A stretch of 64,000 nucleotides of DNA from a candidate division TM6 bacterium UASB124 (lineage in GTDB: Bacteria; Babelota; Babeliae; Babelales; RVW-14): NCBI GenBank assembly GCA_945897315.1, contig CAMDFF010000002.1:23992-87991 (forward strand), read 5' to 3'. The position numbers and the translations under genes are program-made. Shown here piece after piece: positions 5,695-10,075 of the stretch (within the stretch, counting starts at the first letter, position 1; every line of letters begins with the position of its first letter). The notes below the pieces were generated by a model. It saw only the letters and a list, made by a program, of their open reading frames with translations. It made no database searches and was not told the DNA's origin.

Positions 5695-6552
5695 TTATGG
5701 CTTTTTTGAGGAGAGGAGCCACAGTAGCCCAGCGATGGTGCATAAAAGTCCGACAACAGAATACATTTGTACTTGCGAAATAACTAATGATCCTATTGTT
5801 CCAATGATCGGGTCGCGATCACCGCGCCAAAAATCAAGAATAAACCGAGCAATGTTTTCAAGCATGAGAAATGAACACAGCATAATCCCAGGATTCTTTA
5901 GTAGGCGTTTCTGTAAGAAAAATAGTATGGAAAAAGTTATTGCTGATGCGGCACTTGCATAAAGCTGTGTTGGATGCAGAGGTATGAAGAGCGGGGCATG
6001 AGCATCAGGGTTGATAAACGTGACAGCCCACAAGAGGGCAGCAGCAGGAGCTCCATAGCAACAGCCAGCGGCAAAACAACCAAGGCGAGAAATAGCGTGC
6101 ATGAGCGGTGCGAATAGTGCGACAAGATCAAATAGTGGCAGCACCGGGATATGATGTCGCTTGAGGTACCAAAATCCGCCAATCAGAACCCCTATAATTG
6201 CCCCAATGACTGTCAGGCCACCTATCCATGGCAGAAATAATTCGTGCCATCGACCCGTAAATTCTGCAGGGTAGGATAGGGCGTAGAGCAACCGTCCTCC
6301 GGCGACGCCGCAGAGCAGTCCAAAAAAGACACCGTTTATGTAAAGATCTTTGCTGATGATTTTTTTGCGTTGTGGGTGATTGATTGAAAAATATAAAAAA
6401 ATGAGGAGGCCAACGGCAATCATAAAGCCATAGCTTTGAATCCAAATGGGGCCGTACAGATGAGCGATATGCGGAAACATGTGTCCTCCAATGATAAGTG
6501 TTTGAGCTGCAGGGGTACAGTTTACCAGAAGCTGCAGGAGAGACAAGGTCAC
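5695..6552 (-). CDS. lgt: prolipoprotein diacylglyceryl transferase
   Basis: 285 aa polytopic membrane protein with GGRLLYAL and the Lgt signature HPTQLY. GTG start at 6552. Confidence 0.8.
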   Translation of the reverse strand: MTLSLLQLLVNCTPAAQTLIIGGHMFPHIAHLYGPIWIQSYGFMIAVGLLIFLYFSINHPQRKKIISKDLYINGVFFGLLCGVAGGRLLYALSYPAEFTGRWHELFLPWIGGLTVIGAIIGVLIGGFWYLKRHHIPVLPLFDLVALFAPLMHAISRLGCFAAGCCYGAPAAALLWAVTFINPDAHAPLFIPLHPTQLYASAASAITFSILFFLQKRLLKNPGIMLCSFLMLENIARFILDFWRGDRDPIIGTIGSLVISQVQMYSVVGLLCTIAGLLWLLSSKKP

Positions 6553-6555
6553 ATG
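6521..6555. repeat. direct repeat copy 1 (covers the lgt start codon and first codons)
   Basis: tttaccagaagctgcaggagagacaaggtcacatg. It matches 7631..7665 at 32 of 35 positions. Confidence 0.85.
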
Positions 6556-6675
6556 GAAATATCAGATTTTATACATTACTTAGAGAGGTAGAATATTATT
6601 TGTTGCTATGCTCTTACCTGTAACGACATACTCATCAATAGAAATATATTTATTTTTATCACAAAGGGGGGATTC

Positions 6676-7593
6676 ATGAAAAAGATACAAAGACAGCTAT
6701 TACTTGTGGGCGCTTGCGGACTGCTTGTGGGGACTGTTCAGGCATCTTCAGATACCAGAGAAAAAGTTAGGTTGGACCACGACGCAAAAGAGGCAGCAGC
6801 AGAAAATGAGACTCGAGTGCGTGCGCGGGAAATGGCTATTGCCATGCAAAATGCTGCCTGGCAAAAAGCAGTCAGGGATGAGGCAAAAAATAGTCAAGAG
6901 ATTAGCGATAGCATAGCTAAAGCTCGGCAAGGTGGATCAAGCCTTCTGCTAGAAGCTGCGGTTGACGCTAAAGCTCAAGAATCTGCTGGCAGGGATGAGC
7001 TAGCAAAGAGAGCTGCAGAACGCGCAGCACGCGCAGCAGCTCGAGAAGGGCTTGCAAAAGAACAGCGATCAATGGAATGTAGCGAAGCACAATCTGCACC
7101 AGAAAAGGCATCTGAATTGGTTAGATTGCGGCCAGCAGCGACTCGTCCTGTTTGTGCTTCTGCTCCGGCTAAAGAGAGTGAACCTCCATTTGTTAAAATA
7201 GCTCGAGAAAAAAAAGAGCGGGCCGCGGCGGCGCAACTACAGCAAGATCTATCGCGCTTAGCTGATCGTCTAGCTACAATGCCCCAAGAAAAAGCCGAAG
7301 AAGTTGTGGAAAATGCACTGGTAGCAGCTAGTTGTAGCGGATCTGGAGTTGTTGAGGCTGTCGAAGCGCCTGGTAACGATGGCATGGGAGCCCCAGCTGA
7401 AGCACCAGTAAGTTCTTTGCCTGTGAGTGCAGATCCTATGCCAGTAGCTGCGTCTACTGATGCATCTGTGTCAGCTACCGCGCCTACGGCGGCGCCTACT
7501 GCACCAGCTGCTGCCGACGCAGGCTGGTTTGCTTGGGGTGTGCAAGGTGTTGCAAGCGTGCTGCCTTCTTCATTGAACCCATGGTCAAAATAA
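6676..7593 (+). CDS. hypothetical secreted Ala/Glu/Lys-rich protein
   Basis: 305 aa. Signal-peptide-like N-terminus MKKIQRQLLLVGACGLLVGTVQASS. Low-complexity helical A/E/R/K core and an A/P/T/S-rich tail. Visibly more GC-rich than the flanks. Confidence 0.6.
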   Translation: MKKIQRQLLLVGACGLLVGTVQASSDTREKVRLDHDAKEAAAENETRVRAREMAIAMQNAAWQKAVRDEAKNSQEISDSIAKARQGGSSLLLEAAVDAKAQESAGRDELAKRAAERAARAAAREGLAKEQRSMECSEAQSAPEKASELVRLRPAATRPVCASAPAKESEPPFVKIAREKKERAAAAQLQQDLSRLADRLATMPQEKAEEVVENALVAASCSGSGVVEAVEAPGNDGMGAPAEAPVSSLPVSADPMPVAASTDASVSATAPTAAPTAPAAADAGWFAWGVQGVASVLPSSLNPWSK

Positions 7594-7630
7594 GCATTCT
7601 CTAGCGACGTTGCATAGCCGTTGGTAATTA

Positions 7631-7665
7631 TTTACCAGAAGCTCCAGGAGAGACAAGGCCGCATG
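7631..7665. repeat. direct repeat copy 2 (orphan copy of the lgt 5' end)
   Basis: tttaccagaagctccaggagagacaaggccgcatg. On the minus strand it reads only ATG CGG CCT TGT CTC TCC TGG AGC TTC TGG TAA, a dead-end mini-ORF. Confidence 0.85.
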
Positions 7666-7680
7666 AGTTGGAGAGAAATA

Positions 7681-7713
7681 AAAAAGGGATGGCTATTTTG
7701 TAGCCAGCCCTTT
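7681..7713. terminator. hairpin between convergent genes
   Basis: aaaaa-GGGATGGCTA-ttttg-TAGCCAGCCC-ttt. 10-bp stem with one mismatch, with an A-run and a T-run on either side. Confidence 0.45.
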
Positions 7714-7731
7714 AAAACAGCAATATAAAGC

Positions 7732-8490
7732 TTAGAGAGCCATACCACTAAGCAGTGCAGCAAGGCTGTCAGTATTGCCCCGAGCACGTTGTTTTGCTTC
7801 TAGGTTATCGAGCCATTCACAGAATGTGAAGCCGTGTAATTTTTTAAGATTTGCTTCTAGCCGGATTTCTAGCTTAGGGCTGAGAGCAGCGTCTTCGCTA
7901 CTATGATTGCCATAGCTAGAACTACTAAGAAAAGTCGAACGCATGCTGACTAAGCGTTGCAGTTGTTTTATGAGTAAGTAGGTTTCGTCATCCAGTTTGC
8001 CGCTGCGTGTTAAATCCCCTACTATTTTTACAGCGCTTGTTCCACCATTTTTTTTCGTAGATAAAGCCGTTAATTGTGGGCCTGCAGAATCTAGCAGTTC
8101 AATAGTAATAGGATTTAAGAGTGTTTCTTCTGACAACGACATGAATGTTGATAGAAAATTAAACATGCGGTTGAACAAAAGTGTAGGGCGGGCATTTTTT
8201 AGGTTGATTTCTACTTGTTCTGCCGTGGCAATTATTGCCTTGTTTTTTGCTAAACAGAGGTTGCCTGTTTCATCTGTGATGCATTTTATACGCACGCATT
8301 CTGAGTGTGCTTGTGGTGTGAATGATACTTGTCCACGTCTACGCTTCGTGCGATCTTGTTTTTTTGCAGAGGATTTTACGAAGCCGGTGATTTTTCCAGC
8401 GTCTAGGTTGAAACTGAAAACACTACTGAGCACGCAGGCGAGTATGATACCTGATTGTGATCGCATATTCATAATAAACTCCATTTTCAA
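7732..8490 (-). CDS. hypothetical secreted protein
   Basis: 252-aa ORF with a hydrophobic N-terminal segment (GIILACVLSSVFSF). I recognise no motif. The exact start among several Met codons is uncertain. Confidence 0.5.
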   Translation of the reverse strand: MKMEFIMNMRSQSGIILACVLSSVFSFNLDAGKITGFVKSSAKKQDRTKRRRGQVSFTPQAHSECVRIKCITDETGNLCLAKNKAIIATAEQVEINLKNARPTLLFNRMFNFLSTFMSLSEETLLNPITIELLDSAGPQLTALSTKKNGGTSAVKIVGDLTRSGKLDDETYLLIKQLQRLVSMRSTFLSSSSYGNHSSEDAALSPKLEIRLEANLKKLHGFTFCEWLDNLEAKQRARGNTDSLAALLSGMAL

Positions 8491-8616
8491 TTATTCTTAT
8501 ATTGCTACGCAATTATATTATATCTGCATATATAAAAACATCAAATGGGTTGTTGAATGTGTTATTTGTATTAATAAAAGAGTATTGTAAAGGCTTGGTT
8601 TGGAAGAAAAACCAGA

Positions 8617-8905
8617 TAAGAAAAGCGCTATCTGTGGGCACTTGTTGCACGCCTGGGGCAGCACTTTTCTTCTGATTGGTGTAATTGTATAGAGAAATCA
8701 CGCGGCCTGAGAAGCTGTTTGACAGCTTAGACCCTACAGTTACGTTATAAAACGAAAGCTAGTATGATCCTATATCAGGGGAAAGCCGGGTTAAGAAAAC
8801 GTCATCTTAAGGCACTTGTTGCACGCCAGGCGATCGTATTTCTTCCGATTTGCGTAATTTTTTATAAAAATTACGTGGTCAGTGAGCTGTTTGAAAGCTC
8901 GGAAC
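8617..8905. repeat. two diverged tandem copies (~115-120 bp each, 174-bp period) of a non-coding unit
   Basis: ggcacttgttgcacgcc occurs at 8637..8653 and 8811..8827. The flanks are colinear (taagaaaa..., tttcttc.gatt.g.gtaatt, gctgtttga.agct). Each unit ends in a small hairpin (8712..8728 and 8884..8900). Confidence 0.7.
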
Positions 8906-9019
8906 CGTATAGAGTTGAGTACTTAAACTGCAACTATATGAACCTATCCTACCCCCTAAGAAGAATAATGTCAAGTAGGCAATTACAATTATTTTATAGG
9001 GTTGGAAACTTCTTTAGAG

Positions 9020-10075
9020 TCAAAACTGTAAGATCGATTTGATTTGCTCAAATAAAGCTTCGTGGTTGGTTGCAATTGCTTCTTGGCTGAGTACAGTAAA
9101 AATTTCAGGGTGGGCTTTGGCCATGGCTTGGGCATTGTACATCTGGTGATTGGTTGTTTGTGCCAGTAAGGGAATGACAATACAGGGTCGCCTCAGGTAT
9201 GCAATTTCAAATAATGTTCCCGCGCCGGCACGGCACATAATTAAATCAGCAAGTTGGTAGTAATGGGCGATGAGTGGATCGTATGAAAAAGCAATGGCAG
9301 GAATATCTAGATGTTTATAAAAATGTTGCCAATCAGTCTCTTCAAAAGATCCTGTTTGGTGGATAATTTGCACGCGCTGCTTCATCGTAGGGTTTTCAGT
9401 TAGGAATACTTTAATAAGCTTGTTGAGCAGCTGTGATCCTTGTGATCCACCCAAAATGAAAATAGTTTTGCGTTGAACTTCAAAAGGCACCCAGTATTGT
9501 TCGCTAGCATGTTGCCGATTAATTAGTGTAATCAATGTTGGGATGGGCATTTGTGCCTGTTTAATCTCGTGCCTGATCGGGTAAGCGACGAGCGTACTTT
9601 TTGGCAAGTGCTGCTGCGTTTCTTTAAAAACGCAAAAGAGGTTTGTCGCAAAATATTTCAAAACCATGACAGCTTTGCCTGGGAGCACATTCAGTTCATA
9701 CACGTCGATAGGAATGCGCATTGTCCATGCGGCTAAGCACACAGGAATCGCATGAATCCCTCCCGTGGTTATAACACGTTGAGGTTTATGCTCAAACAAC
9801 GTAAAAAAGCTTTTGATGAATAGGCGTGCTATTTGTACGCAGAGTATTGGAAATAAATACCACTTGCGTAGTGAAAATCTGGCAAGAGGCATGTGAATAG
9901 TTCTGTCTATATCGGTTTGTTGCTCTATGATACGGTGCTCTAGTGGTGTTGCACCGGTGATAAAAACAACGCGTCTGTCTGCTTGTTCCAGCTTCCAATC
10001 GTTGGCTAATGTGAGTGCTGGCAAAATATGGCCACCAGATCCAGCGGCAACAGCAAGTAAGACTACGATTTCCAT
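9020..10075 (-). CDS. murG: UDP-GlcNAc:lipid I N-acetylglucosaminyltransferase (MurG family)
   Basis: 351 aa. N-terminal AAGSGGHILPALTLA; C-terminal ADLIMCRAGAGTLFEIAYLRRPCIVIPL. The layout is typical of MurG. Confidence 0.75.
   Translation of the reverse strand: MEIVVLLAVAAGSGGHILPALTLANDWKLEQADRRVVFITGATPLEHRIIEQQTDIDRTIHMPLARFSLRKWYLFPILCVQIARLFIKSFFTLFEHKPQRVITTGGIHAIPVCLAAWTMRIPIDVYELNVLPGKAVMVLKYFATNLFCVFKETQQHLPKSTLVAYPIRHEIKQAQMPIPTLITLINRQHASEQYWVPFEVQRKTIFILGGSQGSQLLNKLIKVFLTENPTMKQRVQIIHQTGSFEETDWQHFYKHLDIPAIAFSYDPLIAHYYQLADLIMCRAGAGTLFEIAYLRRPCIVIPLLAQTTNHQMYNAQAMAKAHPEIFTVLSQEAIATNHEALFEQIKSILQF

Follow-up and report, generated by a model that had tools for sequence, protein, structure and literature searches.

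Probable insertion of a single-gene segment with a 35 bp duplication of the lgt promoter in an uncultured Dependentiae bacterium

How lineage-specific secreted proteins are gained by reduced intracellular bacteria with few mobile elements is poorly understood, and the locus described here raises the question for one gene: how did the gene for a putatively secreted orphan protein come to lie between two direct copies of a 35 bp sequence upstream of lgt? The locus was analysed in a window of 64 000 nucleotides from an uncultured Dependentiae (TM6) bacterium with a genome of 1.26 Mb (coded G000 in the comparisons); all coordinates are positions in this window. Two other public assemblies carry DNA identical to that of G000 at the locus. 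An earlier note on the same DNA had described a GC-rich single-gene islet between direct repeats of the 5′ end of lgt, had likened the repeats to attL and attR and had seen no integrase or transposase. This description was confirmed in part: the repeat, the gene and the lack of an integrase stand, and the equation of the repeat with the lgt start does not. The interpretation was likewise supported in part. Its core, the insertion of one gene with the target duplicated at both ends and left intact and with no recombinase, was upheld, and three of its details were not.

Copy 1 of the direct repeat (6521..6555) adjoins lgt and copy 2 (7631..7665) lies 1110 bp away with 32/35 identities, exactly as first described; neither copy was assigned to a strand. 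Two matches to the 35-mer were obtained in none of 100 shuffled sequences. Its 24 nt core was found at only these two places in the whole G000 genome, and the 35-mer occurs twice in G000, once in G002, once in G003 and not at all in 22 further relatives; the search for additional copies that the earlier note had proposed thus showed that this is not a dispersed repeat. The exact matching runs inside the two copies are 13–14 nt long (at most 14), too short for the repeat to be an assembly error. The three mismatches in 35 positions exceed the 0–2 differences seen at the other repeat-flanked cassettes of this genome; either this event is the older one, or its copies were never identical.

The lgt gene (prolipoprotein diacylglyceryl transferase, 261 amino acids) occupies 5695..6480 on the minus strand and was matched by the Pfam LGT family with an E value of 1e-46. 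The claim that the repeat holds the lgt start and the first ten codons needs the GTG of the longest open reading frame at 6552, and it was not borne out. The Pfam match begins only at residue 28 of the GTG-extended frame, and the orthologues in the relatives all start at an ATG equivalent to that at 6480 (MFPHIAHL/MIPHLAH) preceded by a conserved GGAGG. In G000 this Shine–Dalgarno sequence is at 6485..6489 (minus strand) and it is conserved in all six lineages compared, in which the ATG is preceded by TTGGAGGA and a further 2–3 nt with an invariant TTGGAGG core. From the ATG of the relatives and the start of the Pfam match it follows that the repeat lies 41–75 nt upstream of lgt and is not coding. 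The annotation is corrected accordingly, with the lgt start at 6480 and not at the GTG at 6552 as in one public gene call.

The 35 bp instead appear to be most of a promoter. In the otherwise diverged intergenic alignment of the six lineages the invariant columns are CTTGTC and T..TG.TA.A, which correspond exactly to a −35 hexamer and an extended −10; in L018 the spacer has been replaced and both hexamers have been kept. The putative lgt promoter (6519..6546, minus strand) would consist of TTGTCT (6546–6541), a 16 nt spacer and the extended −10 TGG TAAACT (6527–6519), placed 38 nt before the ATG. This arrangement is of the sigma-70 type, and its hexamers are conserved across orthologous regions with diverged surroundings. 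Judged by this conservation, the duplicated target would be the lgt promoter (TTGTCT, 16 nt, TGnTAnACT), with copy 1 starting 9 nt ahead of the −35 and reaching the fourth base of the −10. The lgt leader folded no better than shuffled sequences (z = −0.9), and no RNA families were found in 6300–9100 at E values of up to 1.

The segment between the copies is 1075 bp long (6556..7630, plus strand), is absent from the five related lineages and has no inverted repeats at its ends (6556/7630). When it was compared with its own genome by blastn and tblastn only the insert itself was matched, with no paralogue or extra copy. A tandem duplication of a 1110 bp unit, with the interior as a diverged copy of the lgt region or of the region of the neighbouring 252-amino-acid gene, would account for a period of exactly repeat plus interior. 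It is effectively refuted, however, by the interior itself, which did not match either neighbouring 1.1 kb segment (best E = 0.07 using blastn with word size 7 and tblastx) while the repeat is 91% identical.

A single open reading frame lies between the repeat copies. As had been noted before, it is a gene for a protein of 305 amino acids with a putative signal peptide (6676..7593, plus strand); 22% of the residues are Ala. It is preceded by a G-rich ribosome-binding site (6666–6671) and by promoter-like sites (6570..6650, plus strand) which were obtained from a consensus scan and are pattern matches only, namely TATACA-18-TATTAT (6570–6599) and ACGACA-16-TATATT (6623–6650). By eye the N-terminus, MKKIQRQLLLVGACGLLVGTVQA, resembles a Sec signal peptide and can be divided into MKKIQRQ, LLLVGACGLLVGTV and QA-SS, so that the protein would be exported by way of a Sec-type signal. 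The AlphaFold2 model (mean pLDDT 66, pTM 0.28) has one long helix over residues 3–140, a second long helix over residues 171–220 and a disordered Pro/Ala/Ser tail (residues 220–301). No Pfam or NCBIfam family matched the protein, which also shows no similarity to the secreted protein encoded on the plus strand at the equivalent slot in G002. A homologue search, which had been suggested earlier, returned none in 40 relatives, 5.8 billion clusters and 1.84 billion representatives.

The GC-richness that had drawn attention to this gene is real (51.6% against a genome ORF mean of 43.3%, the 99.5th percentile). Its reading as a foreign sign did not survive the codon-usage analysis. The excess is confined to the first and second codon positions (0.68 and 0.55), while GC3 is 0.32 against a genome mean of 0.377 and the synonymous codon choice is native-like; the high GC is therefore a consequence of the amino-acid content, with its 22% Ala, and not a mark of foreign DNA. 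As its codon usage is native and it has no relatives, the gene cannot be traced to any donor.

The earlier note had called an empty site in related genomes decisive. The comparison set consisted of the congeners G002 and G003 and the metagenomic lineages L016, L018 and L020, and empty sites were found in all five. In G002 and G003 a single copy of the motif lies immediately before lgt, and nothing is encoded between the motif and the upstream co-directional gene; L016, L018 and L020 likewise have one motif copy and no intervening gene. These are comparisons between species, with ∼70–75% identity in lgt, and not between strains. Since the proteins beside the motif are not the same from one species to another, what is compared is the conserved promoter and the spacing rather than a base-for-base empty site. 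The spacing agrees closely: the interval between the 252-amino-acid gene and lgt in G000 is 1251 nt, which after subtraction of 1110 nt becomes 141 nt, and the corresponding intervals in the relatives are 134 nt (G003), 149 nt (G002) and 151 nt (L016). An allele of the same species without the insert was sought among public contigs with an identical Lgt, 246-amino-acid neighbour or cargo, and all of these were filled and had identical DNA.

The direction of change was read from the Lgt tree, ((G002,L018),(G000,(L020,(L016,G003,P0008)))), in which G000 sits between clades that all lack the insert; the node placing G000 has moderate support (82/82). On this topology one gain is cheaper than two or more losses, which points to a gain of the insert in the G000 lineage. 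A deletion between direct repeats happens readily and leaves just one of them, and the divergence of 3/35 suggests that the repeats are not young; an ancestral cassette with two repeats could thus have been lost by repeat recombination in the relatives, each keeping one copy. This explanation is nevertheless very hard to credit, as it calls for at least two independent losses on the Lgt tree, leaves the gene without trace in 40 relatives or any database and still needs an earlier insertion to make the repeats.

The old flank can be recognized beyond copy 2. A hairpin (GGGATGGCTA...TAGCCAGCCC, 7681..7713, assigned to neither strand) terminates the minus-strand 252-amino-acid gene and follows the plus-strand cargo gene; it is part of the old flank, and the congeners G003 and L016 likewise have a hairpin at this position relative to the motif. 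The upstream neighbour itself (7732..8490, minus strand) encodes an orphan of 252 (or 246) amino acids with a signal peptide in a variable slot between murG and lgt. Neither Pfam nor NCBIfam assigns it to a family, it shows no similarity to the proteins that fill this slot in G002 and G003, and no direct repeats of note were found around the orphan genes in this slot of the congeners.

The locus is probably best explained by the insertion of a 1075 bp segment into the lgt promoter with a 35 bp target duplication, an event of the class 'insertion with long target duplication'. One event in the G000 lineage would have placed the segment in the promoter, and with the segment would have come the one gene for a secreted orphan, supplied with promoter-like sites and a ribosome-binding site of its own. 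The event would also have doubled a 35 bp stretch of the target that begins a little before the −35 and ends halfway through the −10. Transcription of lgt would still be driven by copy 1, to which the CT of the −10 (left untouched), the leader and the Shine–Dalgarno sequence remain attached, and copy 2 would be a relic beside the old upstream flank with the terminator of the 252-amino-acid gene. As lgt is probably essential and heads the string lgt–dnaG–rpoD, an insertion could have been retained only if it restored the promoter; the function of the target, the promoter of an essential gene, explains why the duplication was kept. As to the chemistry, we infer either that a break was repaired whose nicks lay tens of bases from each other, or that a circular DNA with a short copy of the target entered by a single crossover.

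Copy 2 retains TTGTCT but lacks the start-site region and the final two bases of the −10, and in the intergenic alignment its similarity stops inside the −10. By chance AATAAT follows this TTGTCT at 18 nt, and the minus strand of copy 2 (7656–7627) scored 9/12 in the promoter consensus scan. Copy 2 might have been selected as an antisense promoter reading across the cargo towards lgt, silencing the cargo or adding to lgt transcription, a proposal which is compatible with the insertion model and which would fit the new hexamer pair and the fact that all three mismatches between the copies fall outside the hexamers. This selection is distinctly doubtful: copy 2 no longer has the conserved TAnACT −10 or the region of the start site, and by our own estimate three random changes would miss the critical positions with a chance of ∼0.2, so that the sparing of the hexamers is uninformative.

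Insertion with long target duplication would not be confined to this locus. At least five further cassettes of G000 share this geometry, with duplications of 27–78 bp, each of a different sequence and with no integrase beside it: a YafQ/ParD-like cassette (78 bp), an AAA_14–DUF4143 cassette (28 bp), an AbiE cassette (34 bp) and DUF1703 cassettes (27 and 50 bp). Both G000 flanks map onto one shared stretch in G002 and G003 for the YafQ cassette (77–79 nt) and for the AAA_14 cassette (32–34 nt). Neither G002 nor G003 has the DUF1703 cassette in the interval beside tmk, and both are without the AbiE cassette and an adjacent 264-amino-acid gene. No common terminal motif was seen among eight repeat-flanked cassettes. 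Two of the eight (C39 and C8) were left out of the count, a dispersed hairpin repeat or paralogous 3′ ends being the better explanation for them. A DDE transposon, IS or MITE was rejected for the locus upstream of lgt, as terminal inverted repeats are lacking and the duplications (35 bp here and 27–78 bp at the sister cassettes) are not of a short fixed length.

These cassettes also bear on the attL/attR origin that had been proposed for the repeats, in which a tyrosine or serine recombinase acting in trans or later deleted would have integrated the segment at a specific site. Direct repeats do stand on both sides of the insert and restore the target, as in integrative elements at tRNA genes, and the genome holds two tyrosine recombinase genes. 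Both lie on other contigs, however, and encode proteins of ∼316–324 amino acids, as would be expected of XerC and XerD. The absence of an integrase or transposase nearby had been stated correctly, the Phage_integrase and rve hits of the genome being on other contigs only. The 1075 bp hold no recombinase remnant, and neither the sense nor the antisense reading frames of the insert have a Pfam match (antisense at E values of up to 5). No recombinase gene lies in or beside the segment, no att core is reused by related elements and the 35-mer shows no dyad-symmetric core; sister duplications of 27–78 bp with differing sequences are not what a single recombinase would produce. Site-specific integration is accordingly not favoured and is very improbable, and the sister cassettes agree better with insertion with long target duplication than with the chemistry of an integrase.

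A variant of the insertion explanation was also weighed, in which a small circle carrying the cargo and a short copy of the lgt promoter was integrated by a single crossover through host homologous recombination (Campbell-type insertion). The three mismatches would be expected if donor and recipient differed from the start, a ComEC-like uptake gene is present in the genome and a closely related donor would be in keeping with the native codon usage. Insertion–duplication of this kind likewise leaves two direct copies around the insert and uses no dedicated recombinase, but normally needs hundreds of bases of homology, whereas only 35 bp with three mismatches are available here and exact runs of 13–14 nt are very short for RecA-dependent exchange. 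Neither a circular form nor a second locus with the cargo beside a promoter copy was found, and the origin of the target piece in the first circle is merely pushed back. This variant is considered unlikely, although a minor share of belief is given to it.

As a probable insertion with long target duplication, the locus offers a clean case, that of a datable single-gene gain with a cargo unable to move itself. Together with the toxin–antitoxin, DUF4143 and DUF1703 cassettes of the genus it suggests that the long-target-duplication route is host-driven or acts in trans, in which case it would be open to any DNA and not only to cargo that cuts DNA. A broader and rather speculative reading, held with little confidence, is that integrase-free long target duplication is a general route of gene gain in Dependentiae and not only one for selfish nuclease or toxin modules. 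It would deliver host-interaction genes with their own promoters (here the secreted orphan) into the promoters of essential genes, the relic promoter copy would give antisense transcription, and the multi-copy DUF1703 ATPase-nucleases with the same footprint in the genus would supply the breaks in trans.

Among known systems, phage 'morons' resemble the insert in that they are single genes with promoter-like sites of their own between genes that are neighbours in relatives. They lie in prophages and are not defined by target duplications, and there is no phage context here. Phages and islands integrated at the 3′ ends of tRNA genes, and integrase-less CIMEs, are alike in the rebuilt target end and the flanking direct repeats; they differ in that the present locus has no integrase and no tRNA or recurrent att site, and that its sister repeats are unrelated. 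The closest fit is the published class 'insertion with long target duplication', which requires neither an integrase nor a transposase within the insert (Furuta, Abe and Kobayashi, 2010, PMC2853133; an earlier source for the class, Nobusato et al., 2000, Gene 259:99, is given here as cited in PMC2853133). As in that class, the locus has a direct target duplication of more than 30 bp (35 bp, 32/35), a single-copy uninterrupted site in related genomes (G002, G003, L016, L018 and L020, compared between species), an insert of less than 20 kb with no mobility gene (1075 bp with one open reading frame) and a repeat that is not dispersed in the genome. The published cases further agree in that the repeat is unique in the genome and spans a control region of a gene, the target gene remains intact, no integrase or transposase is present and the lengths vary within one genome. 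In those cases the cargo is a restriction–modification system and DNA breakage by the cargo is the suggested driver (PMC2853133), whereas the cargo here is a putatively secreted orphan that has neither a nuclease nor an addiction function; restriction–modification cargo is a search criterion of Furuta et al. (2010) and does not belong to the mechanism, and the footprint still fits. The empty sites of the published cases come from other strains, and those of this uncultured Dependentiae bacterium from other species. A literature search for direct repeats and mobile elements in Dependentiae turned up no paper. The duplicated target was a start or stop codon in the published cases and would be a promoter here, and it is this promoter target, together with the non-selfish cargo, that is unusual at the locus.

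The 35-mer TTTACCAGAAGCTGCAGGAGAGACAAGGTCACATG at 6521–6555 (copy 1, on the lgt side) recurs 1110 bp away at 7631–7665 (copy 2) with three mismatches, as described in the earlier note, and 0 shuffles of the window gave the two-match outcome. The genome-wide search proposed there for further copies located a 24-nt core (one free position) at these two sites and nowhere else in the 1.26 Mb, 49-contig genome carrying the window (G000). The longest exact runs common to both copies measure 13 and 14 nt, a length that would not mislead an assembler, and the DNA of the locus is identical in two further public assemblies (Logan ERR3719148 and ENA ERZ27280257). The 35-bp repeat is real and a dispersed motif is excluded. 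The insert between the copies (6556–7630, 1075 bp) has no terminal inverted repeats at its ends and no further copy in the G000 genome. Tandem duplication was rejected, as neither neighbouring segment resembles the insert. Across the junction, the end of the insert and the start of copy 2 pair as a small perfect hairpin (7621–7634, GGTAA-TTAT-TTACC).

The lgt gene lies on the minus strand and its longest ORF begins at GTG 6552. The rival gene calls differ over window 6481–6552 (locus L015): 285 aa from GTG 6552 in ENA and 261 aa from ATG 6480 in Logan. The Pfam LGT match starts at residue 28 of the longer ORF, and the N-termini of Lgt from relatives (MFPHIAHL or MIPHLAH) correspond to ATG 6480 in G000. 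The shorter predicted lgt is favoured by this homology and by a conserved Shine–Dalgarno sequence; the description of the repeat as the lgt start and first ten codons, which needs GTG 6552, was not upheld. Copy 1 is located 41–75 nt upstream of lgt. The 100 nt upstream of lgt were aligned for six lineages: G000, the congener genomes G002 and G003, and the metagenomic contigs L016, L018 and L020 of related lineages. The sole invariant columns before the leader are CTTGTC and T..TG.TA.A, with 16 nt between them; after about 35 variable bases come TTGGAGGA, 2–3 nt and the ATG, TTGGAGG itself being invariant. In L018 the spacer between the blocks is replaced and both blocks are kept. Judged from conservation, the two blocks make up a putative sigma-70-type promoter whose −10 is of the extended kind (TTGTCT, 16 nt, TGnTAnACT), and the leader and Shine–Dalgarno sequence come after it. 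The predicted −35 falls at 6541–6546, the predicted −10 at 6519–6524 and the Shine–Dalgarno sequence at 6485–6489 (plus-strand coordinates). The positions of the invariant blocks thus imply that the repeat takes in the putative lgt promoter, with 9 nt ahead of the −35 at one end and the first four bases of the −10 at the other.

By the source names attached to Lgt homologues, the organism belongs to Dependentiae/Babeliales. In G003 (95% complete) the gene order is murG, a 232-aa ORF, lgt and dnaG, with the ORF 134 nt from lgt; in G002 it is a 238-aa ORF, lgt and dnaG, with 149 nt before lgt. A 228-aa ORF precedes lgt by 151 nt in L016 and an upstream gene by 214 nt in L020, while murG and lgt are separated by 255 nt with no gene between them in L018. 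A degenerate motif pattern was found twice in G000, once each in G002 and G003, and in none of 22 further relatives. The gap between lgt and its upstream neighbour in G000, a 252-aa gene (7732–8490, minus strand), is 1251 nt; without the insert and one of the repeats it would be 141 nt, which matches the 134–151 nt of three of the five relatives (G003, G002 and L016). The Lgt tree was ((G002,L018),(G000,(L020,(L016,G003,P0008)))), with moderate support for the placement of G000 (82/82), and its topology makes one gain on the G000 branch cheaper than at least two losses. No same-species genome lacking the insert was found among the public contigs searched; the empty-site relatives are other species with 68–75% Lgt identity. 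These comparisons show a 1075-bp insertion specific to the G000 lineage, with duplication of 35 bp of the lgt promoter, and the empty sites of relatives with one motif copy each, the check called for in the earlier note, support its reading of a one-gene insertion with a duplicated target.

The murG–lgt interval is hypervariable (window 6480–9020; loci L005, L006, L016, L018 and L020), ranging from empty (L018) to two genes, and the slot holds different signal-peptide orphans in each species, mutually unrelated and with no detectable similarity to one another. Between the 252-aa gene and murG, two colinear non-coding units (repeat families D1 and D4; period about 173 nt) occupy 8608–8906.

The insert holds promoter-like sites (6570–6599 and 6623–6650), a G-rich ribosome-binding site and one 305-codon ORF, the cargo gene (6676–7593, plus strand). 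Its product contains 22% Ala and has an N-terminus resembling, by eye, a Sec signal peptide; AlphaFold2 without an alignment gave long helices (3–140 and 171–220) and a disordered Pro/Ala/Ser tail (220–301) at a mean pLDDT of 66. The protein matches no Pfam or NCBIfam family, and the suggested homologue search, now run, found none in 40 relatives, 5.8 billion protein clusters or 1.84 billion representatives (HMMER, whole set). The gene is GC-rich, as first noted (51.6%, the 99.5th percentile of G000 ORFs), but the inference of foreign GC did not stand: the excess lies in codon positions 1 and 2 (0.68 and 0.55), GC3 (0.32) is below the genome mean (0.377), synonymous codon choice is ordinary for G000 given the amino-acid composition (z = −0.43, 35th percentile) and the Ala codon shares nearly equal those of the genome. 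Native GC3 and codon choice thus make the 'GC islet' an effect of amino-acid composition and not a mark of foreign DNA; either the donor would have been compositionally alike or the gene has been long resident. No shuffle folds as well as the whole 3' region of the cargo mRNA (7594–7675; z = −3.6), in part owing to the shared terminator. Elsewhere in G000 (C5:281–2260), two adjacent genes for secreted Ala/Pro/Gly-rich proteins (508 and 762 aa) have in common a 179-nt module (95% identical) comprising promoter, leader and signal peptide, and the direct-repeat scan gave no other repeat in the gene bodies; the 762-aa protein has GGNNCFI, by eye like the Cys box of ubiquitin-specific proteases.

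Together with the leader, the Shine–Dalgarno sequence and the CT of the −10, which is intact, copy 1 would drive lgt and probably also the dnaG–rpoD string downstream. The cargo gene would have a promoter of its own about 25 nt away and be transcribed divergently. Copy 2 would be a relic next to the old upstream flank (terminator hairpin 7681–7713). One mismatch, in the spacer, is polarisable: the state of copy 1 is shared with G002 and L016 and that of copy 2 is derived, which fits decay of copy 2. Copy 2 retains TTGTCT-18-AATAAT and could act as a putative antisense promoter into the cargo gene. Insertion may have proceeded by repair of a break with two nicks tens of bases apart and fill-in, or by a single crossover of a circle carrying a short target copy.

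The G000 genome was scanned for isolated direct repeats of 24–180 nt lying 0.3–8 kb apart, and the cargo was named by Pfam. Five further cassettes were noted: a YafQ toxin with a ParD-like antitoxin (C15:10521–11326; repeat of 78 nt, two mismatches, duplicating the 3' end of the neighbouring gene), an AAA_14-DUF4143 ATPase (C6:15296–16711; 28 nt, perfect), an AbiEii/AbiEi pair (C1:160978–162446; 34 nt, perfect) and two DUF1703 genes (AAA-ATPase_like PF09820 plus PDDEXK_9 PF08011), one at C22:2182–3816 (27 nt, one mismatch, duplicating the tmk ribosome-binding site and ATG) and one at C26:1888–3702 (50 nt, two mismatches, duplicating the maf 3' end). In G002 and G003, the left and right flanks of the YafQ cassette match stretches that overlap by 77–79 nt, and those of the AAA_14 cassette stretches that overlap by 32–34 nt, so that each site holds a single repeat copy without an insert. 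The corresponding interval of G002 and G003 also lacks the tmk cassette (a gap of about 351 nt versus 1814 nt in G000). The AbiE cassette is missing from both together with an adjacent 264-aa gene, and in G003 the left-flank match stops precisely where the first repeat ends. DUF1703 genes are multi-copy in the genus, often tightly flanked by unique direct repeats of 27–119 nt; in G003 several of at least ten copies are bracketed by unique repeats of 47–119 nt (loci L049, L050, L051, L054 and L056). A junction-spanning inverted repeat comparable to that at the lgt insert is visible at the AAA_14 cassette (TGATGA...TCATCA), and C41:1–5780 has identical 149-nt ends, indicating a 5631-bp circle or an assembler-collapsed tandem repeat.

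Each site has a repeat of its own sequence and length, and no end motif common to the cassettes was seen. A dedicated site-specific recombinase is a poor fit, since the repeat changes from cassette to cassette, and the attL/attR picture first proposed is not supported. Two tyrosine recombinase genes, both the size of XerC/XerD, are present in G000, as are three rve-type matches and ComEC-like matches; none of these lies near the cassettes or on the contig of the window, in agreement with the earlier remark that no integrase or transposase is present.

The footprint is the 'insertion with long target duplication' named by Kobayashi's group (PMC2853133), first described in Helicobacter pylori (Nobusato 2000, as cited in PMC2853133) and later found in many bacteria and for all types of restriction-modification system (PMC2853133). 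The class is defined by a duplication of more than 30 bp, no other mobile element and a one-copy empty site in a related genome (PMC2853133), and all three features are found at the lgt promoter. A start or stop codon frequently lies within the published repeats, which lets the target gene survive, and DNA double-strand breakage is suspected as a common driver, without experimental proof (PMC2853133). The excerpted text of Siozios et al. (PMC6387759) reports that DUF1703 has expanded in Cardinium, Simkania and Rickettsia and names no mobility mechanism; one is offered by the repeats that flank DUF1703 genes in this genus, which suggest that the family spreads via insertion with long target duplication. 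The lgt locus differs from the published class in that its cargo lacks any nuclease, methylase or addiction function, its duplicated target is a promoter and its host is an uncultured intracellular-type bacterium. It joins an already known class, and is of some interest for combining a non-selfish orphan cargo with the promoter of an essential gene as target.
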